Positions 1,381 to 32,150 of a DNA stretch of 64,000 nt are shown piece after piece. The position numbers and the translations under genes were made by a program. Position 1 is the stretch's first letter. Every line of letters begins with the position of its first letter. The notes under the pieces were generated by a model that did not search any database, was not told the DNA's origin, and worked only from the letters and a program-made list of their open reading frames with translations. The DNA comes from a virus. Taxonomy: Duplodnaviria; Caudoviricetes. The stretch lies in IMG/VR virus record IMGVR_UViG_3300037991_002562, positions 32,001 through 96,000 of that record. The stretch is one strand, 5' to 3'.

Positions 1381-1704
1381 TTATACTGCCATTCTGGCTT
1401 CTATTTTGCCATGGCTTTTATAGTTTTCTAATTGTATGTCTTTGGGGTCTACACAATGGCAATAATTTAAGAACTTTTGCCACGGCGTACTCCCTACTGC
1501 TTTTGGTAGTTTTAATGTAGGTAATGGGTATGACTCATTTTGCAACACTTGACCGCACTGGTCTAGGTGGTTGTTGTATATATGAGTATCTCCACCAGTA
1601 AAAATAAGCTTACCAGGCTTAAGTCCTATACACTCAGCTATAATGTGTGTCAATAGAGCGTAAGACGCTATGTTGAACGGCAAGCCCAAGAAAACGTCGA
1701 TTGA
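1381..1704 (-). CDS. thyA: Thymidylate synthase, exon 2
   Basis: SIDVFLGLPFNIASY, GDTHIY, C-terminal MAV. The ATG at 1705-1707 in the ORF track is really the intron 3' end. Confidence 0.95.
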   Translation of the reverse strand, partial: SIDVFLGLPFNIASYALLTHIIAECIGLKPGKLIFTGGDTHIYNNHLDQCGQVLQNESYPLPTLKLPKAVGSTPWQKFLNYCHCVDPKDIQLENYKSHGKIEARMAV

Positions 1705-1847
1705 CATTATGTTCGCAAGAGGTCGTTAATCTCTTGCCGGTACTAAACCAGCTGCAAGTTACCTTGCAGATCAGACTATATCACAACCCCAAAGGGGCTC
1801 TATCCGTTTCGGTCTTACTTAAGACCTACTCTCTTTCGAGATAGTCG

Positions 1848-2591
1848 TTAGGCATTTATGTAGAAAAAATCTTCCCATTTTTTAGCGGCACTATTTACTC
1901 TGTAATGAGCAGCTCCTGAAGTTATACCGTACTCTCTAGCCATAGCAGCTAGAGAAGGGAACTCTCTGCCTTCAGCGGAGATCTTCCTAGCATTGCTAGG
2001 GATACGTCCCTTGGCTTTATCTGAGAGCTTTTTTCTTGTTTCTTCGGAGTGTTTTTTGCCGTAAAATGGGTTGCTCTCCCCTCTCCTCTCTCTGCAAGAT
2101 AAGCAGGTTTTATTTATGGGCGCTATTTCTTTTTGTTTACAAACAGGACATAACTTCCTACTAATACCACCTTTCCAGTTATGGTTCTTGGCTCCAGGCA
2201 TCCCCCACTTTTCTTTTCTTTCCTCAGCTGTCATATTTTCTATATTGTTGAGTACAGTGGATCGTATTTTCTGTATTATTTGCTCTCTGTTGGGGTGCTT
2301 GGTAAGATTATCACCACCCCCAACAGACCCTATGTTGTACTGCGGAGATAGAGAGTCTATCCAATACTTCTCTTTTTCAAATAGGTTACAACTTTCGGAT
2401 AGCTCTTCTAAAATTTCAAAATGAAAAGATGACTCCCCGTATTTGTTGTAAGCGCGTTGCAAATATACATTACAGTGTTTGTTGTTTCGTAAGTCCGATA
2501 AGTGTCTTAACATTCTAGCCCTAAAGCTAGAAGCGGATCCTACGTAAAATTTTTCTGTCTGTTCGTTTATTATAGCGTAAATTACTTTCAT
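1848..2591 (-). CDS. Intron-encoded GIY-YIG homing endonuclease (I-TevI-like)
   Basis: VIY...FYVGS, R..H, FEILEE; CPVC...CLSC zinc finger; NUMOD3-like NPFYGKKHSEETRKK; C-terminal HTH. ATG at 2591 follows an AGAGGT RBS. Confidence 0.93.
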   Translation of the reverse strand: MKVIYAIINEQTEKFYVGSASSFRARMLRHLSDLRNNKHCNVYLQRAYNKYGESSFHFEILEELSESCNLFEKEKYWIDSLSPQYNIGSVGGGDNLTKHPNREQIIQKIRSTVLNNIENMTAEERKEKWGMPGAKNHNWKGGISRKLCPVCKQKEIAPINKTCLSCRERRGESNPFYGKKHSEETRKKLSDKAKGRIPSNARKISAEGREFPSLAAMAREYGITSGAAHYRVNSAAKKWEDFFYINA

Positions 2592-2614
2592 CAAATTCTG
2601 TACCTCTATTAAAT

Positions 2615-2643
2615 AGTATACCTAGAATTTGAATGGAAGTCCA
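2615..2643 (-). promoter_or_regulatory. Intron-internal promoter for the endonuclease, TGGACT-N17-TATACT
   Basis: Near-consensus hexamers about 25 nt upstream of the endonuclease start. Confidence 0.6.
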
Positions 2644-2754
2644 TAAAATATTTTATTTCTACAACTTAGCACGGGATTGTCCTAACTTATTAGGAGTTTC
2701 CCCGTTTAGGATAGTTTTTCGGGTACAATTACTTGTACAAGGCGCTCAAAGTTA

Positions 2755-3285
2755 ACGCTGATGCCACATTAATGATAGTCTTCCGTCCTTGGATACAAAA
2801 CACTGGAATGTGTGGTGGCAAGGTGGCAGAGCCATTTTATCTAGGTCGGATGGATTCCAAGCTGTGACTATATGTCGTCTATCGTAAGGGTCTTTTACTA
2901 ACCCTTCTATAAGCTTCTCCATCTGGTCTACACCATTAAAAGAACGCCACTGCTTACCGTATATAGGGCCTAAGTTACCGTTAGAGTATCCTAGTGCTTT
3001 TGCTTGCTTGTTGTAATTATCATCCCAGATAGTTTTCTTTATAGAAGTAGTAGAGCCGTGAGTTAGATATCTCAACTCGTTCACGTTAGTAGAGCCCCTC
3101 ATAAACCATATCAGTTCTGAACGTACTGCATTCCAAGCCAGGGCTTTCTCTGTTACAGCAGGAAAGCCTTCAGATAGGTCAAACTCCATTCGAGTACCGA
3201 ATACTCGTCTAGTGCCTACACCAGTTCGGTCTTCTACTCTATCACCTGTTAAAACTTGAGTAATTAAATCTTTATACTGTTTCAT
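2755..3285 (-). CDS. thyA: Thymidylate synthase, exon 1 (spliced product about 284 aa)
   Basis: DRTGVGT, LGPIYGKQWR, catalytic ALPPCH; ends WHQR at the splice site. Confidence 0.95.
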
Positions 3286-21532: not shown

Positions 21533-21565
21533 CACACTAACTCAGTGTATAAACTAAGGAATTAT

Positions 21566-23920
21566 ATGAAAATAGCAATCATCCAAAAATGCCCATCCAA
21601 GACTGAATACCAGAAACTGTTCATGTTACAGAATCACGAGGTAGAAGTCTACAACCTATCAAGTACTAAGGTTTCTCGGCTACTTAAACGAGATATAGAC
21701 CTTACAGACTTCGACCCAACTAAATTCGACTACGTAATCCTCGTAGGTTCTGAAGCTCTAAAAAACTATACAAAACAAACATCAGTAACCGATTATACCG
21801 GAAAACAAGTTGAAGGTAAATGCGGTTATCCTAATTTCATTGCTAGTATATCACCAGCGATGTTAGCATTTAAACCAGAAAACAAGCCTGTGTTTGACTT
21901 AACTGTAAAAGCTATCCATAATATATTTGGTGGCGTTGAAGAAGACATGGCAAATAAAAACTACGAGTTCTACAGAGAGACTGAAGATATTAAGAAGTTT
22001 CTTAGAAGAGCTGAAGCCCACGGAACTGACGTAGTAGCGCTCGACTCCGAAACCAGTGCATTAGAACCTAGAGAAGGGTACATGCTCGGTATCTCTGTAA
22101 CATACGAGCTTCACCAAGGAGCTTACCTAGACTCGGATGGACTAGACCAAGAATGTGTTGATATTCTACAAAAAATTATCGATACTAAGGACGTAGTATT
22201 CCACAATGCTAAGTTCGATATGAAGTGGTTTCTTTACCATTTAGGCGTAAGGTTTGACCACAGAGAAGGTCACGTACACGATACAATGATTCTTCACTAT
22301 CTGTTAGACGAGCGACAAGGTACTCACGGACTGAAATCTTTGGCACTTAAATACACAGACTTAGGGGCATACGATGATGAACTTGACGAGTGGAAGAAAG
22401 ATTACATAAAACAGTATTCTATTGACCCAGACACATTCTCGTATGACCTAATACCTTGGGACATAATCAAGGTGTATGCAGCAAAAGATACAGATGCTAC
22501 ATTCCAACTGTTCCGTAAGTTCTACCCTATTCTTATTAAGAACAACAAATTAAAATACTGTTACGAAGAGCTACAACTACCAGCACTTCACTTCTTAACT
22601 AGAATGGAAGACCGTGGAGTTCCGGTATCTGCTAACAGACTTCTAGAAGCTAATAACTACCTAGACAGTCAGCTATCAGCTTACCGTAAGCAGCTATGGG
22701 AAGTAGAAGAAGTAATAGAGCTAGAGCAAGAGCAAGGAGCAGTGTTTAATCCTAACTCTGTTCAGCAAATTAGAAAGCTACTGTTTGATAAAGTAGGCTT
22801 AAAACCGACAGGTAAATTGACAGGCACAGGTGCAATCTCAGTAGACAAAGAGGTGCTAGACACTCTAGCTGCTCAGCATAAAGTACCAAAGCTTATTAAG
22901 AATATCAGAACGCATTTAAAACTTAAATCAACCTACATATCTAAGCTAATACCGTGTATTAATTCAGATAGTAGAGTACGAACAGGGTTTCACCAAACCA
23001 CGACCACTTCGGGTCGATTGTCCTCATCAGGTCGATTTAACATGCAGCAGCTCCCAAGAGATAATCCTATTATCAAAGGTTGTGTAGTTCCTCCTGAAGG
23101 TTATAAAATAGTAGCCTTGGACTTAACCACCGCAGAAATTTATTTTGCGGCTGTCTTATCGGAAGATAAGGCAATGCAGCAAGTATTTATCAACATGAAG
23201 AAAGACCCTGATAAATACCCTGATTTTCATAGCAACATAGCACATATGGTGTTTAACTTACCATGCGAACCTAAAGATGTAAAAGAGTTATATCCTGCGC
23301 TAAGACAGGCAGCAAAAGCCATTAGCTTCGGCATTTTATACGGGTCAGGCCCAGCTAAGGTAGCAGAAGCGGTTAACCTAGCGTTCCTAGAGAATGACCA
23401 ACCTGCAACTTGTACTGTAGAAGATGCTAAAGGATATATCCAAGACTACTTCCGCAGATTCAAGCAGCTTAAACGTTGGATTGATGAATGTCATAACCAA
23501 ATCAAAGAGCATGGTTTCATCTATAACCACTTTGGTAGAAAGCGCAGACTACGCAATATTAACTCTAAAGACAGAGGTATTGCTTCTGGTGAAGTTCGTT
23601 CAGGATTTAACGCAATCATCCAGTCTATCTCTAGTGATTCATTGCTACTAGGTGCGATTGATGCTGATAAGGAAATCATAGAAAAAGGATTCCCTGCTGA
23701 AATCTTCGCTCTAGTACATGACTCCATCGTGGCAATTGTTAGAGAAGACAAAGTAGAAGAGTACATCGAGCTAGTAACTAGAAATGTACAAAAAGACCGT
23801 GGATGTTCAATCCCTGATTGTCCTGTTGGTCTAGAGGCGGACTCAGAGCCAGGTGGTTCTAGAGACTATTCTTGTGGTAAATTAGAAGCTAAGTATCCAG
23901 ACTTAGCTAAGGTAGCATAA
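21566..23920 (+). CDS. polA: Family A DNA polymerase with 3'-5' exonuclease
   Basis: ALDSET, HNAKFD, YAAKD, TTSGRLSS, D...AE, RQAAKAISFGILYG, VHDS; AGGA RBS before 21566. Confidence 0.95.
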   Translation: MKIAIIQKCPSKTEYQKLFMLQNHEVEVYNLSSTKVSRLLKRDIDLTDFDPTKFDYVILVGSEALKNYTKQTSVTDYTGKQVEGKCGYPNFIASISPAMLAFKPENKPVFDLTVKAIHNIFGGVEEDMANKNYEFYRETEDIKKFLRRAEAHGTDVVALDSETSALEPREGYMLGISVTYELHQGAYLDSDGLDQECVDILQKIIDTKDVVFHNAKFDMKWFLYHLGVRFDHREGHVHDTMILHYLLDERQGTHGLKSLALKYTDLGAYDDELDEWKKDYIKQYSIDPDTFSYDLIPWDIIKVYAAKDTDATFQLFRKFYPILIKNNKLKYCYEELQLPALHFLTRMEDRGVPVSANRLLEANNYLDSQLSAYRKQLWEVEEVIELEQEQGAVFNPNSVQQIRKLLFDKVGLKPTGKLTGTGAISVDKEVLDTLAAQHKVPKLIKNIRTHLKLKSTYISKLIPCINSDSRVRTGFHQTTTTSGRLSSSGRFNMQQLPRDNPIIKGCVVPPEGYKIVALDLTTAEIYFAAVLSEDKAMQQVFINMKKDPDKYPDFHSNIAHMVFNLPCEPKDVKELYPALRQAAKAISFGILYGSGPAKVAEAVNLAFLENDQPATCTVEDAKGYIQDYFRRFKQLKRWIDECHNQIKEHGFIYNHFGRKRRLRNINSKDRGIASGEVRSGFNAIIQSISSDSLLLGAIDADKEIIEKGFPAEIFALVHDSIVAIVREDKVEEYIELVTRNVQKDRGCSIPDCPVGLEADSEPGGSRDYSCGKLEAKYPDLAKVA

Positions 23921-24258
23921 TGAGAAAATTACTTAAAGTTTTTGGAGCTGAGGGAAGCTCTGATGATAGTAGCTTTGTAACCTATCTATACAAGCTGGTT
24001 CTGCATAGAACCGGCCCTACTTCCCCACAGTCTGAGATCCCTATATACTTGGACAACAACAAAGTAGGTACTGTATTACTACCTAATGTGACAGATGGTA
24101 CTTTATATCTAGCTTGTGACTTGACTATATCAGAAGAGTTGCTAAAGTTCTTAGTACCTTCGTTAACATTAGCTAATTCTGGTTACGTTCATGTAGAGTT
24201 GAGAGTAAAAGAGGTGTTTGATGTTTCTGGAGTGCCAATTCCCGATCTACGAAATTAG
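23920..24258 (+). CDS. Hypothetical protein
   Basis: TAATG coupling to the polymerase gene. Confidence 0.6.
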   Translation: MRKLLKVFGAEGSSDDSSFVTYLYKLVLHRTGPTSPQSEIPIYLDNNKVGTVLLPNVTDGTLYLACDLTISEELLKFLVPSLTLANSGYVHVELRVKEVFDVSGVPIPDLRN

Positions 24259-24730
24259 GAAGTACGTAGATAAATTCGAGGAAGGTAACTACATTGTTAT
24301 TCAAACTAACAGAACTAGATGGGTGCTTGACTATAAGTACAAAACCGACGACGATTATGCTATACGCAGAATGAAGTTAAAAACCGACCCACTTTGTCCG
24401 TACAAAGTGTATCCGCTATATAAGATGCACAGGACAATAGGGCAGGTAATTCGTTCTAAGCATAGAGAGTTTATAGATAGCACAGGTCGTATGATTTTAT
24501 ATAAGCCTGCTAAGTTCTATAATATTAAAATAGCCAAGATAAGAGCGTCTTGGCTAACTCAAACAGGGCATCGAGCGTATAAGGTTTTAGAAACTAATAG
24601 AACATTTGTATCTATTGACGGTCAGTACACCCATATAGCCTATGTTGAAGTAGGTAGGCGTACCTTTTTAATTGATTTAATAACTTCCAAGGAGCTTCCA
24701 GAGTTCAAAACAGTTAGAACAAAAATATGA
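24218..24730 (+). CDS. Conserved T5-like hypothetical protein upstream of D10
   Basis: GAGG RBS, synteny, FIDS.G..I.YK motif. Confidence 0.7.
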   Translation: MMFLECQFPIYEIRKYVDKFEEGNYIVIQTNRTRWVLDYKYKTDDDYAIRRMKLKTDPLCPYKVYPLYKMHRTIGQVIRSKHREFIDSTGRMILYKPAKFYNIKIAKIRASWLTQTGHRAYKVLETNRTFVSIDGQYTHIAYVEVGRRTFLIDLITSKELPEFKTVRTKI

Positions 24731-25068
24731 GAAAAAAGGCAGTAATATCTAACAAGATATATTTGAACTGTTCTAAAGGTTCGGACTTACAGCACAAGCT
24801 AGAGTCCGAACTAACTTATGAAATAAATCAACAACCTATCTCAGAGTTCCCTTTGGTTATTAGACACCTTACTAGGATATCTGATATGGTTGTTTCATTC
24901 CCCGCAGGTAGAGTAGACCTAATACCAGATGATTACGAAATTGTAGACAAACGTAGTTATGAAGAAGCTGAAATACCAGAGCCTAGTTTTACGCTAAGAG
25001 AGAATCAAGCAGAAGCTAATGATTATTTCAGCGATGGTATGTCTGGTATTATCAACTGTAAACCGGGT
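24727..25068 (+). CDS. D10: SF2 (DExH) helicase D10, exon 1
   Basis: KAVISNKIY...LRENQ Q-motif; ends INCKPG, the first half of Walker A. Confidence 0.9.
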
Positions 25069-25358
25069 TAGTGTAACCTTAGCTCGGTATAAACTCTTCT
25101 AATTGCTGGAACGTCCTTAGAGCTTTTTAACTACAGCGTAACTGGAAACGGTAAGCGCGAATGTTTGAAAATAAAAAGATTGGATAATCAGCAGCTAAGA
25201 CCCTAAAATGGGTAAAGTTCAGAGACTATCCCTATATGGGAGTAGGCTTCAACGGAAGTCGAAATGGAGAGTAATATCATTAAGATATTAAAGATATAGT
25301 CCGATCTTTATCGAAAGATAAAGAGCGTCAGGTAACGGTCTGACGCGTAACATAAATG
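25069..25358 (+). mobile_element. ORF-less group I intron (290 nt) in the D10 helicase gene
   Basis: P1: exon ACCGGGU pairs with GCUCGGU. P AAUUGCUGGAA (25101), Q AAUCAGCAG (25186), R GUUCAGAGACUA (25217), S AAGAUAUAGUCC (25291); ends CAUAAAUG. Removal restores CKPG|WGKS in frame. Confidence 0.93.
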
Positions 25359-26375
25359 TGGGGTAAGTCCATATGTGCTATGGGCTTAATAGCTAAGTAC
25401 CAATTAAAGACCTTAATAGTAACTACTACCACAGTTATACGTGATATGTGGGTTAAGGAAATAAAACAGCACTTTGGTATAGAGCCTTGTGTTATTGGAG
25501 GTGGGAAGGTTATAAATCCCGAATCTCCAATAGCCGTAGGTAATATACAAACAGTAGAGAAGATTATCCAAAAGGAAAGCGGTACGTATGGAATGCTGAT
25601 AATCGACGAGTGCCACCATTGTTCTGCCAATACATTTACCAAAGTTCTGAACGTATCTAGAGCATCTATAAAAATAGGTCTTAGTGGTACATTGACCAGA
25701 CGAGACGGTAAACACGTACTGTTTAACGACTTCTTTGGTTCCAAGAGGTTTGTTGGTAAAGATGAAAACCGTATGAAGCCTACTGTGTGGGTTTATAGGT
25801 CAGCAGTACAAATTCCATCCAACTCTATGATTCCGTGGGCACGCCGCGCCAACGCAGTTATGGAAGACCCACGACATTTAAGTGATGTTATTTTTATAAC
25901 TAAAATATTGGAGCAGCTAGGGCACAGAGTTTTGGTGGTTGCAGATAGGGTAGAGTTTTTAGAAAAAGCTCACAAGGCATTACCTTATAGCTTAATAATA
26001 GCTAAGAACATGGCCGCTACCGCCGAAGAGCGGGAGATAGTCATGAATGCTGTTAAACAAGGAAAAGCATTATCATTGTGTGCAACACAATCTATTTTCT
26101 CCGAAGGTGTGTCACTTAACGAACTATCTGCATTAGTTGCAGGGTCTTTAATCAGCTCTGAAGAGTTACTTGAGCAGCTTATTGGTAGGGTTCAAAGACC
26201 TGCTAATAATAAGCTACCTCCTATAGTAGTAGATATAAGACTAGAGGGTGAAACAGCTAGAAGACAGTTCTATAACAGGAAAGCTCTGTATACAAGAGAG
26301 GGCTGGGAAGTTAAAGAAATAAGCAGGGCGGCAATGCTGGACTTGGTGAAACAACATGAGCAAACAATTAGCTAG
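25359..26375 (+). CDS. D10: SF2 helicase D10, exon 2 (spliced product about 452 aa)
   Basis: WGKS, IIDECHH, GLSGT..R.DG, SEGVS, QLIGRVQR. Confidence 0.9.
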   Translation, partial: WGKSICAMGLIAKYQLKTLIVTTTTVIRDMWVKEIKQHFGIEPCVIGGGKVINPESPIAVGNIQTVEKIIQKESGTYGMLIIDECHHCSANTFTKVLNVSRASIKIGLSGTLTRRDGKHVLFNDFFGSKRFVGKDENRMKPTVWVYRSAVQIPSNSMIPWARRANAVMEDPRHLSDVIFITKILEQLGHRVLVVADRVEFLEKAHKALPYSLIIAKNMAATAEEREIVMNAVKQGKALSLCATQSIFSEGVSLNELSALVAGSLISSEELLEQLIGRVQRPANNKLPPIVVDIRLEGETARRQFYNRKALYTREGWEVKEISRAAMLDLVKQHEQTIS

Positions 26376-26655
26376 CACTACACTTAACCTCATACTTGCA
26401 GAGGTTTCTAAAGACTTAGTAGACCCTAGCATGGGAGACCATAAGAAGTATTGGCAAATACTATCTACAGGTATAGAGAAGTTTATACAGAAAATGGCCT
26501 CCTGTGAACATAGCAATACCGTAACCAAGTTGAGCAACGGTGGCTTGTCTGGGTCAGGTAAGAAAATAATAAGCAAAATAACTCACTGCGAAGATTGTGG
26601 TAGAGTTTTAAGCACAGAAGTATTTGGAAAGGCTAATAATCTAGATACCCTGTAG
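26356..26655 (+). CDS. Hypothetical protein with possible Zn ribbon
   Basis: CEH...CEDCG. Confidence 0.55.
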   Translation: MSKQLASTTLNLILAEVSKDLVDPSMGDHKKYWQILSTGIEKFIQKMASCEHSNTVTKLSNGGLSGSGKKIISKITHCEDCGRVLSTEVFGKANNLDTL

Positions 26656-27744: not shown

Positions 27745-27774
27745 GAAGAGGGTGGCGAAAGTCACCCTTCTTTT
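27745..27774 (+). terminator. Intrinsic terminator after D11
   Basis: AGGGUGGC-GAAA-GUCACCCU followed by a U-run. Confidence 0.8.
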
Positions 27775-27784
27775 AAGGAATTAC

Positions 27785-28732
27785 ATGGATCATATTTTCG
27801 TAGCAGACATTCACATAAAGTTAGGACAAAAGAATGTACCTAGTGAATGGCAGCGCAATCGAGTAATGCTACTAGCAAAAGAGTTAAATGAATACAAAGA
27901 TAAAACATTGGTAATTGGTGGAGACTTGCTTGATGTAGCTAAGCCTACTATGCCAGAAGTGTGTTTGATGTATGACTTCCTTAGAGCGCTAGAGCACGAA
28001 GAAATAATTTTAATACCTGGAAACCATGAAATGCTTACTAAGAAAAAGGATTGCTTTGAAGTTTGCGACCAAATATTTAAAGACCTTAATATAACATTAG
28101 TTAGAGATTTCCAGACGATAAACAATGTAGACTACATCCCGTATAACATACTATTATCAGATAGTTGGAGCACTCCAAAGTCTACACTAGCAGTAACCCA
28201 CGTACGCGGGGAAATCCCACCACACGTTAAACCAGAAGTAGAGCTTTCCAAGTTCTCCCACTATGAAAAAGTATTCTGCGGAGATTTACACTCTCGTAAA
28301 AACTCCCAGTTAAATCTTATATATCCAGGTAGCCCATACACTACTAGCTTTCATAGAAGTGTATCAAAGGGAGCAAATGGTATTGTATTATTTGATTCTA
28401 ATACCGGAGAGCATGAGTGGAAAGAGCTAAACCTACCACAACTATTAAGACTTACTATTACCGACCCTGAAGAAGCAATACCTGGCGAGTATCACCACAC
28501 TCTTTATGAGATTGAGGGTAACTTAGCCGACCTATCTAAAGTTAAGAATAACGAACTATTAGATAAGAAAGTAGCAAAAGATATTGTAACTCCTCCAACT
28601 CTAGAGCTAACAGGTGACATATCCGACGAGCTTCAAACATATCTTAAAGGAGTTAAGGATATTAAGGGAGAAGGTATGTCAAGACTTCTTACTATATTTA
28701 AAGAAGCACTACAAGGAGTAGACGACGTATGA
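27785..28732 (+). CDS. D12: SbcD/Mre11-like nuclease
   Basis: ADIH, GGDLLD, PGNHE, GDLH, YPGSP; AAGGA RBS before 27785. Confidence 0.9.
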   Translation: MDHIFVADIHIKLGQKNVPSEWQRNRVMLLAKELNEYKDKTLVIGGDLLDVAKPTMPEVCLMYDFLRALEHEEIILIPGNHEMLTKKKDCFEVCDQIFKDLNITLVRDFQTINNVDYIPYNILLSDSWSTPKSTLAVTHVRGEIPPHVKPEVELSKFSHYEKVFCGDLHSRKNSQLNLIYPGSPYTTSFHRSVSKGANGIVLFDSNTGEHEWKELNLPQLLRLTITDPEEAIPGEYHHTLYEIEGNLADLSKVKNNELLDKKVAKDIVTPPTLELTGDISDELQTYLKGVKDIKGEGMSRLLTIFKEALQGVDDV

Positions 28733-31266: not shown

Positions 31267-32150
31267 AGGGAATTTTCGAATTAGAAGACGAAGGACTAGA
31301 CACTAGAGACTTTGATGGGCAAAATAACTTGCTCCTAGTTGACGGTCTTAACCTAGGATTTAGATATAAACAACAAAGCTTATTTGACCACGCTGCTCCT
31401 TATATGAATACTGTTAACTCCTTAGCTAAATCCTACGGTTGCAATCATGTAATCGTAGGATCAGACTACGGAAAATCTACTTTCAGAAAGGAAGTAAGCG
31501 AAGGCGAGTACAAAGCAAATCGTGAAATAATGCGAAAAGAACAGACTGAAGAAGAAGCCGAGAAATTTAAGAAGTTCTTGGAGGGCTTTGAAAAAGCCCT
31601 TGCTTTAGTCGGTACTATGCATCACACAATAAAACTTCGCAATGTGGAAATGGACGACATTGCTGCTTACATTGTTAAAAAGTACGGACACTTATTTGAC
31701 AACATTTGGTTAATCTCTTCAGATAAAGACTGGGATTTACTATTAAAGCCAAACGTACATAGGTTCTCCTACGTTACTAGAAAAGAGTACACTGTAGATA
31801 ACTTTGCAGAATCCCATGAAGGTTGTGAAAATCCTGAGGACTACGTGTCTATGAAAGTGTTTTCTGGAGACCCCGGAGACAATGTTGCAGGGTTCCCAGG
31901 CGTAGGCGCAAAACGAGCTTACAATCTAATACGTGAGCATGGCTCAGCATTAGACGTATACGACGCGTTACCTCTAGCAGGTAAACAAAAATATATACAG
32001 TCAATTAATAACGACCCTGAGAAAATTCTTAGGAACTACGAATTAATGGACTTGCTTAGCTACTGCGAAGAAGCTATAAACCACCCAGACAATAACAATA
32101 CAAAATTAATTGACGATATTATGCAGGAGATAATTAATGAGCTTGATTAA
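31263..32150 (+). CDS. D15: Flap endonuclease / 5'-3' exonuclease
   Basis: LVDG.NL.FR, YKANR, EMDD, SSDKDW, GD.GDNV.G.PGVG.KRA. Confidence 0.92.
   Translation: MKGIFELEDEGLDTRDFDGQNNLLLVDGLNLGFRYKQQSLFDHAAPYMNTVNSLAKSYGCNHVIVGSDYGKSTFRKEVSEGEYKANREIMRKEQTEEEAEKFKKFLEGFEKALALVGTMHHTIKLRNVEMDDIAAYIVKKYGHLFDNIWLISSDKDWDLLLKPNVHRFSYVTRKEYTVDNFAESHEGCENPEDYVSMKVFSGDPGDNVAGFPGVGAKRAYNLIREHGSALDVYDALPLAGKQKYIQSINNDPEKILRNYELMDLLSYCEEAINHPDNNNTKLIDDIMQEIINELD

Follow-up and report, generated by a model that had tools for sequence, protein, structure and literature searches.

The stretch of viral DNA analysed here, called the window throughout, is the 64,000-nucleotide (nt) segment from base 32001 to base 96000 of a virus record (IMGVR_UViG_3300037991_002562) that is 108,868 bp long and has direct terminal repeats. 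It contains a predicted D10-type superfamily 2 (SF2) helicase gene whose frame is broken within the codons of the Walker A motif by 290 nt, and we conclude, at a probability of about 0.93, that the interruption is a functional group I intron, free of any sizeable open reading frame (ORF), in the D10-type helicase gene of a marine T5-like phage. The interrupted gene is laid out as follows, in window coordinates.

24727-25068, + strand: helicase exon 1, 114 codons, C-terminal ...INCKPG
25069-25358, + strand: ORF-less group I intron, 290 nt, with an in-frame TAG at its start and a terminal G at its end
25359-26375, + strand: helicase exon 2, 338 codons plus stop, starting WGKS... and carrying the rest of motif I through to motif VI

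The frame of exon 1 is stopped by a TAG at the very start of the intron (25069-25071), and that of exon 2 ends with the stop codon at 26373-26375. Joining 25068 to 25359 in silico yields a protein of 452 amino acids (aa) with the junction ...INCKPG/WGKSI... (the slash marks the insertion point), which places the insertion between Gly114 and Trp115 of KPG/WGKS in the Walker A motif (motif I), and the product aligns without a gap to the KPGFGKT(I) of three uninterrupted helicases (PVo5, D149 and VspSw_1). The Rfam group I model RF00028, which has a gathering score of 50 bits, matches 25039-25323 (+) over model positions 1-253 of 253 with 91.1 bits (E 5e-22); it is the sole match above that score in the 64 kb of the window, and a scan of the whole genome agrees. 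Rfam's own alignment of P1 is shifted into exon 1, the true P1 lying elsewhere, and the ORF list holds no ORF of 30 aa or more inside 25069-25358. Since 25069 and 25359 are both T the junction is ambiguous by one base, and the ends given here were chosen because the U.G and terminal-G rules for group I introns select them.

Related contigs bear on the same boundaries. Four contigs in IMG/VR, L007-L010, hold the same 290 bases at 96.5-99.3% identity within helicases that are 98-99% identical to that of the window, and a fifth, L011, is without exactly these 290 nt and reads straight over the predicted ligation point. Between L011 and the window there are 75 exon differences, and at each of these positions L007 carries the same base as L011; outside the exons L011 and L007 are 99.1-99.7% alike. 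L011 represents either an allele left empty or cured very recently or a spliced transcript that was assembled, and in both cases it fixes the intron ends to within one shared T. An ORF-less intron at 25069-25358, whose removal restores CKPGWGKS within a protein of about 452 aa, is what a preliminary description of the window had proposed, and the Rfam match, the in-silico product with its gap-free alignment and the L011 junction bear this out.

The host gene is assigned to the D10 type because of its Pfam domains, its identity to T5-like helicases and a shared gene order, all of which uphold the earlier identification of the gene as a T5 D10-type helicase. Pfam matches ResIII (1.6e-17) and Helicase_C (3.7e-07) in exon 2, which also finds 1029 phage records by tblastn (coverage at least 80% in 927), while exon 1 is 39-45% identical to the N-terminal part of T5-like helicases among the matches listed, with coverage of at least 80% in 899 of 902 records. 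The window helicase is 37-46% identical to the helicases of cultured T5-like phages (tblastn), and some of the matched relatives are annotated as "putative helicase D10". The order polymerase, hypothetical, helicase, hypothetical, D11, D12/SbcD is shared with T5-like Vibrio phages, where the helicase occupies one continuous frame of 446-451 aa. D10 of T5 has the same neighbourhood as the window gene and, in T5 itself, no intron at the site; PMC5180179 describes it as an SF2 branch-migration helicase that has both Walker motifs (A and B) and an arginine finger. The exons are without a DNA-level match in the phage collection, a search with the whole gene returning the intron only, and the lineage is without a close cultured relative.

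Ribozyme fold and covariation

An unconstrained minimum-energy fold of the element was compared with the assigned group I helices. It yields P1, P3, P4, P5 with its extension, P6, P7.1, P7.2, P8, P9 and P9.1; P7 is the sole helix absent from it, and fits when imposed. The elements, all on the + strand and taken from the fold unless stated otherwise, are these.

25062-25088: P1, exon bases 25062-25068 plus intron bases 25069-25071 against 25079-25088
25069-25074: leader lost on circularisation, from circle junctions in RNA-library contigs
25076-25081: P10 guide ACCUUA, pairing with 25359-25364, the first six bases of exon 2 (6 bp); read from the sequence
25094-25099 with 25266-25271: P3, CUCUUC/GGAGAG
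25104-25109 with 25188-25193: P4, enclosing P5
25113-25185: P5 and its extended P5a/b/c arm, with a GAAA loop
25194-25218: P6
25224-25228 with 25297-25301: P7, imposed on the fold
25229-25241: P7.1, peripheral hairpin
25245-25260: P7.2, peripheral hairpin
25272-25290: P8 hairpin, 7 bp with a 5-nt loop, the position of the ORF in relatives
25305-25324: P9, with a GAAA loop
25325-25346: P9.1

The guide sequence at 25082-25087 pairs with exon bases 25063-25068, setting the U25068.G25082 pair at the 5' splice site, and the last base of the intron is G25358. No P2 is visible in the sequence or the fold, there being no room for it between the guide and P3. Two extra helices, P7.1 and P7.2, lie between P7 and the 3' strand of P3, an architecture that we take to be that of subgroup IA (IA2-like by the criteria of Michel and Westhof); we call the intron IA-like, a label drawn solely from these two hairpins. 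The P1 helix with its U.G splice pair, the P3 strands, the pair of extra hairpins following P7 and the terminal G had all been listed beforehand as parts of a complete core, and each structural element is present at the place predicted for it.

Related introns were compared for covariation in the assigned helices. The alignment comprised 13 introns (12 of them distinct), namely the four ORF-less copies of the window's clade, the ORF-bearing introns at the same site in L014, L032, L048 and phage Kenya-K44, and five introns of other genes (crAss-like capsid, jumbo-phage RNA polymerase and ICP1), and 59 pairs of P1 and P3-P7.2 were counted. Standard pairs are formed in 90.9% of cells, compared with 34-44% after displacement of the 3' partners by one to three columns; of the 59 pairs, 40 have changed on both sides, compared with 9-20 after displacement; and none of 500 shuffles reached any of the observed covariation measures. 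Changes on both sides affect 6 of 10 pairs in P1, 5 of 6 in P3 (where 95.8% of cells are paired), 16 of 21 in the helices of the P5 arm, all four inner pairs of P6, and 4/4 and 4/6 pairs in P7.1 and P7.2 respectively (8/10 together). P4 is invariant in all 12 distinct sequences, and the sequence of P7 is invariant among the same-site introns and is uninformative for covariation.

The remaining helices, P8, P9, P9.1 and P10, were inspected by eye on a separate alignment, as a full-length alignment of ORF-less with ORF-bearing introns misplaced the 3' parts. In P8 the copies of the window and L007 differ by two compensatory pairs, and the inner triplet of P9 varies in paired fashion among the relatives (AUC/GAU, AGA/UCU, AGG/CCU, AUA/UAU). 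The P10 guide tracks the first codon of exon 2, which is UGG in the window, UUC in L032 and L086, and UUU in L048 and Kenya-K44 (L081). In L032 a synonymous change in exon 1 from CCG to CCA is matched by a change of C to U in the guide. Across L032, L048, L081 and L086 the P1 and P10 guides thereby follow replacement as well as synonymous changes of the adjoining codons.

Ligated exons and intron circles in RNA libraries

The stretch is present in 20 public sequencing runs, six of which are RNA libraries, and all six of these are marine. All 20 runs are labelled as marine, seawater or marine sediment metagenomes, and they come from 11 studies dated 2014-2025; seven of the runs may be the source sample, and the labels are a pointer to habitat and no more. 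Contigs from four marine metatranscriptome runs (X8, X17, X18 and X19, from four studies) were aligned to 24700-26400, so that the RNA evidence consists of assembled contigs and not of reads. The joint of 25068 to 25359 was found in three of the four runs (X8, X17 and X19); it skips 290 bases with the ends TA..TG and carries the one-base ambiguity noted above.

X8: joint in a 13,207-nt contig with 0 differences from the window over 24700-26400; circle in a 316-nt contig
X17: joint in a 507-nt contig; no circle
X18: no joint and no circle; unspliced 3' junction alone
X19: joint in a 470-nt contig with 30 bases on its short side; circle in a 314-nt contig; unspliced 3' junction as well

The joints lie on three or more exon haplotypes, including one that matches the intron-bearing window exactly. 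X8 has no contig over either unspliced junction, and gaps of this kind, like the missing circles of X17 and X18, prove nothing. The depths of the X8 contigs (joined 198.8, circle 16.7) are not comparable measures.

Two runs contain contigs in which the end of the intron is followed by its own beginning. The X8 contig reads 25073-25358 and then 25329-25358 again, corresponding to a 286-nt circle joining G25358 to G25073, and the X19 contig reads 25329-25358 and then 25075-25358, corresponding to a 284-nt circle joining G25358 to A25075. We interpret them as circles because the contig ends repeat the same 30 bases, which is how a 31-mer assembler prints circular molecules. The circles drop four or six leader bases, each junction falls directly after a U, and the sequence allows U25072 and U25074 each to face G25082, the partner of the splice-site U. 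Cyclisation after splicing is classical for group I introns, as established in work on Tetrahymena and T4.

Several points weigh against an active intron. The contigs give neither strand nor usable abundance, and DNA may be present in RNA libraries; one of the four RNA runs, X18, shows the unspliced 3' junction only; L011 may be a DNA allele or a transcript, so that the joint on its own is no proof of splicing; P4, P7 and part of P6 are invariant and hence silent on structure; and the ORF-bearing intron of L014 has one U-U mismatch inside P1. An explanation that draws on the first of these is that the joined contigs, and L011 with them, come from intronless phages in the same waters, in which case the intron would be real and natural splicing of this particular copy not demonstrated. 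The 13,207-nt joined contig of X8 is indeed more genome-like than transcript-like, the joined form exists as an IMG/VR contig (L011), and presence/absence polymorphism is expected of a homing site. We nevertheless judge this explanation improbable. The joint alone could stem from empty-site genomes, but the circles could not, because no intronless allele can produce a junction of 25358 to 25073 or 25075, and neither can integrated intron DNA. Furthermore, the X8 joined contig equals the window over 1411 exon bases, whereas L011 departs from it at the 75 positions described above and has exons equal to those of the intron-bearing L007.

Far less probable again is that the element is a dead relic, with the helicase either made as two assembling polypeptides (114 aa, and about 339 aa from an ATG at 25356) or encoded by an inactive gene. 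Some phage enzymes are indeed encoded by "genes in pieces", a gene caller would report two ORFs here (24727-25071 and 25356-26375), and two "DNA helicase" coding sequences (CDS) are annotated in three GenBank relatives. However, the cut is inside the P-loop, leaving neither piece with a complete Walker A motif; the ribozyme core, which is intact, exceeds the Rfam cut-off by 41 bits; the compensatory changes in P8 have occurred even between copies that are 96.5-99.3% identical; and the exact joint and the circles are present in RNA libraries. We therefore consider that the window intron is very probably active, and the locus to be a rare case in which splicing and circularisation of an intron from an uncultured phage can be read from environmental RNA assemblies.

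According to this model of an active intron, the gene would be transcribed as one pre-mRNA, on which translation of unspliced molecules would end at the TAG of intron bases 1-3. In the folded ribozyme P1 would present the U25068.G25082 pair, and an external guanosine would attack after U25068; exon 1, once released, would be kept next to exon 2 through P10 and would attack in turn after G25358. The product would be an mRNA for the 452-aa helicase with an intact KPGWGKS loop, and the excised intron would circularise through attack of its terminal G after U25072 or U25074. We infer both the dependence on guanosine and the absence of any need for protein. Because the cut lies inside the P-loop, synthesis of the helicase would depend on splicing.

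The insertion site and related introns in other phages

The state of the site in 68 related IMG/VR helicase loci, classified by tblastn across it, is as follows.

55 of 68 loci: continuous across the site, seven of these distant (26-32% identical)
9 of 68 loci: insertion exactly after KPG (L007-L010, 290 nt; L014, 980 nt; L032-L034, 1020 nt; L048, about 1020 nt)
1 of 68 loci: insertion located 6 nt downstream of that point, past the second Gly (L072, about 987 nt, with a LAGLIDADG ORF)
3 of 68 loci: truncated (L012, L013 and L031; L013 shows the 3' part of an intron)

A query with the ORF found in some of these introns added two occupied contigs, L085 and L086, and all eight loci that it returned are at this helicase site; further IMG/VR contigs occupied at the same site number 11 in all. 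Every same-site intron outside the window's clade carries an ORF of 227-250 aa in P8. The exact site is also polymorphic for presence and absence, L007-L010 being occupied and L011, with the exons of L007, being empty (or a transcript). At its gathering score Rfam missed L032, L048 and L072; L032, L048 and L081 match RF00028 only below threshold, at 35-42 bits (40.8 bits for the 5' part of the Kenya-K44 intron), and the L072 intron has no Rfam match even at E 0.01. The L072 intron (1514-2500 of that contig, about 987 nt) has a related core, an LAGLIDADG_3 ORF of 253 aa and the site ...WG/KT..., and with only four bases after the 3' strand of P7 it has no P9.

Three GenBank genomes of Salmonella Tequintavirus phages, Kenya-K44, phA11 and phC11, are occupied as well (loci of this group are L081, OQ291036.1 67616-73344, and L082, OQ680478.1 91030-96758). 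The annotation of all three gives D10 as a pair of "DNA helicase" CDS on either side of a "hypothetical protein" and lists no intron; phA11 and phC11 have the intron ORF itself recorded as two CDS, and it may be disrupted in them. A megablast search with the exon-intron boundary of Kenya-K44 matched 207 Tequintavirus records, of which only these three extend into the intron; the other 204, T5 included, are without it at the site, and the D10 DNA of T5 is a 95.8% match to the end of exon 1 in the split gene of Kenya-K44. A 60-aa junction probe showed most T5-like helicases of the phage collection to be continuous, a probe of this kind being unable to list split ones. Split D10 genes and versions bearing a candidate endonuclease were found, such genes having been suggested by the preliminary description as targets to seek among T5-like genomes, and the Walker A codons would seem from their distribution to be a homing site.

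The novelty of the site calls for one qualification. No description of an intron in D10 or a T5-like helicase was found in PMC or bioRxiv full text (supplements and subscription journals lie outside this search), and in the text of the phA11/phC11 paper the words intron, helicase, homing and endonuclease are all absent; the intron is, on the other hand, already present, unannotated, in three GenBank genomes. The site is new to the literature searched but not to GenBank. Elements of this kind are textbook examples, and the new details are the site with its three states, a further intron at a distance of 6 nt and the evidence from environmental RNA.

The ORF-bearing introns at the site are 980-1028 nt long, and in L014, L032, L048 and L081 the strands of P8 close around an ORF of 227-250 codons. 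It starts just past the 5' strand of P8 and ends inside P9 or P9.1, its last residues (...KDIVRSLSKDKE...) being a translation of the ribozyme core from P8' through P7' to P9. The N-terminus consists of two tandem Cys4-type zinc-ribbon modules, and a conserved C-terminal block has invariant E138, D166 and E175. The ORF has no sequence match in Pfam, PHROG or PDB. A word-index protein search returned three clusters and an exhaustive profile search 76 representatives; Pfam, run on 32 of the 76, gave weak zinc-ribbon matches and two to DUF4379, one of them above the curated cut-off. An AlphaFold2 (AF2) model has a predicted local distance difference test score (pLDDT) of 73.6, and with the full model Foldseek returned nothing at E 0.001 or better. 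Aligned with VIA-align, the C-terminal residues 140-219 fit I-Bth0305I (PDB 3r3p) best (Z 6.0, root-mean-square deviation 4.5, 69 residues aligned), followed by TnsA (5.5), Vsr (5.1), and then tRNA-splicing endonucleases and VRR-NUC. The score is middling, though the structures listed are consistently PD-(D/E)xK, and the modelled C-terminus is weakly suggested to be PD-(D/E)xK (I-Bth0305I/Vsr)-like. The motif of that homing endonuclease group, EDxHD, was not seen in the ORF alignment. PMC12350094 describes, in phage introns, an outgroup with CapR/DUF4379-like (zinc-finger) repeats plus an EDxHD/Vsr-like domain; the ORF resembles that group in its zinc-ribbon modules, in a C-terminus that may be Vsr-like and, through distant family members, in a link to DUF4379.

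Nothing in the 108,868-bp genome of the window matches this ORF. The last 19 residues of one protein, P0003, are the exact translation of the window intron's own P8'-P9.1, which suggests that an ORF-bearing twin of this intron exists; no relative turned up when metagenomes were scanned for the DNA that encodes P0003.

The window intron was compared with introns at its own site and at others. The same-site relatives have an identical insertion point, KPG/xGK[ST], and the same core architecture, in which P1, P10, P3, P6, P7.1, P7.2, P8 and P9 all co-vary, and the L014 core is 77-89% identical to that of the window; these relatives differ in having the P8 ORF and a P6a extension, neither of which the window copy possesses. 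At other sites the nearest cores by DNA similarity are 71-77% identical over 53-81% of the intron and come from the RNA polymerase beta gene of jumbo phages (the PhiPA3 gp209-211 region, Serratia 2050HW), the crAss-like major capsid gene (cr118_1, bajarodcaudo virus 1) and ICP1. Their helices and their P4/P6/P7 consensus are those of the window intron; the host genes are unrelated. PhiPA3 and Serratia 2050HW have a "putative endonuclease", and ICP1 an "HNH homing endonuclease", 5' of the core; in bajarodcaudo virus 1 an "intron associated endonuclease" lies about 1.7 kb upstream, and cr118_1 has no annotated endonuclease in the stretch examined.

The td, nrdB and nrdD (sunY) introns of T4 are group I introns of subgroup IA2. 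Like them, the window intron interrupts the codons of a highly conserved catalytic motif in a DNA-metabolism gene, has P7.1 and P7.2, places an in-frame stop at its start and appears to circularise once excised; unlike them, it is in another gene and site, is without an endonuclease gene and P2, and has a long P5 arm. A second gene of the window, thyA, is also split (1381-3285, - strand), at Pfam profile position 168/169, and its parts are listed here together with the neighbours of the helicase gene.

3285-2752, - strand: thyA exon 1
1707-1381, - strand: thyA exon 2, the intervening sequence being about 1044 nt
2594-1848, - strand: I-TevI-like GIY-YIG/NUMOD3 endonuclease ORF inside the thyA intervening sequence
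21545-23920: family A DNA polymerase, ahead of the helicase with two small ORFs between
27752-28732: Metallophos (calcineurin-like)/SbcD-like gene (Pfam), downstream of the helicase beyond a small ORF and the gene in the D11 position

The flanks of the thyA interruption give sub-threshold RF00028 matches (28.7 and 22 bits), and the intervening sequence is predicted to be a td-like intron. It has no blastn match to the helicase intron longer than 19 nt (E 0.18 or worse) and carries a GIY-YIG ORF, in agreement with the earlier observation that the two cores differ.

Other observations concern the surroundings of the helicase. The interval between polymerase and helicase holds a 170-aa ORF (24218-24730, + strand) that matches phrog_4386 (function unknown, E 4.3e-31) and is kept at the same position in L014 and the Vibrio T5-like phages. 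The alignment of L007-L009 to the window breaks within the DNA polymerase gene, at the equivalents of 23224/23225 (L007 and L009) and 23122/23123 (L008), and just upstream of the break each contig (1-366 in L007 and L009, 1-264 in L008) has stretches resembling the helicase intron's 3' portion at 75-83% identity; each of these three contigs seems to carry one of two different polymerase introns that are absent from the window. A stand-alone HNH endonuclease gene in L002 (2504-3001; Vibrio phage D149, with many records like it) finishes exactly where the uninterrupted helicase gene begins, and may be another helicase-associated mobile nuclease.

Mobility, history and meaning of the intron

Because it has no endonuclease gene, the window copy is non-autonomous, unable to home alone. 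That any mobility needs an endonuclease in trans, as had been supposed, is plausible, given that same-site relatives carry a candidate ORF and the window genome does not. The intron could spread to empty sites if the endonuclease came from a co-infecting relative, and once in place it would remove the presumed target of that enzyme, so that in mixed infections the gene would be shielded from cleavage for as long as the intron is present.

Comparison of the copies indicates that the window intron probably descends from an ORF-bearing intron at the same site by loss of the P8 insert. We prefer loss because the ORF-bearing form occurs in five helicase clades (L014, L032-L034, L048, L085/L086 and Kenya-K44), whose helicases are 37-69% identical to that of the window, whereas the ORF-less form is confined to the window's own clade. 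The reverse order, in which the ORF-less state is ancestral and an endonuclease gene entered P8 later in other lineages, would fit the clean P8 hairpin of the window, which shows no ORF debris, and the jumbo-phage RNA polymerase and ICP1 introns keep their endonuclease upstream of the core, implying that ORFs move independently. Yet the divergence of the ORFs (33-37% identity) about matches that of the helicases (43-44%), and the end of P0003 translates the window's own core, and we hold the reverse order to be rather unlikely. It should be borne in mind against descent by loss that this direction is a matter of parsimony over few clades and of one protein, P0003.

A further reading, offered tentatively and on balance doubtful, is that the Walker A codons of D10 are, in T5-like phages, a contested homing hotspot at which two endonuclease lineages travel with related ribozymes, and that the ORF-less copy is kept as armour. 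A zinc-ribbon and Vsr/EDxHD-like enzyme would be inserted after KPG and a LAGLIDADG enzyme 6 nt downstream of it, as in L072, and the intron, instead of being a decaying passenger, would shield an essential gene from the endonucleases of co-infecting relatives. If this were true, splicing would be efficient and RNA circles would accumulate in the sea.

For annotation, recognition of the intron restores an intact 452-aa helicase that is otherwise called as two fragments, as it has been in the three GenBank genomes. The ORF family is a compact candidate site-specific nuclease whose presumed target is present in T5 and hundreds of relatives. D10-like helicases are reportedly triggers of retron defence (PMC12746101), and it is a speculation that an element controlling D10 expression also touches phage-host conflict. 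The site adds a conserved motif of a replication and recombination helicase to the short list of phage genes hit by group I introns, and its empty, ORF-less and ORF-bearing states are those expected as stages of a homing cycle, found here at one site in phages of marine and of enteric bacteria.

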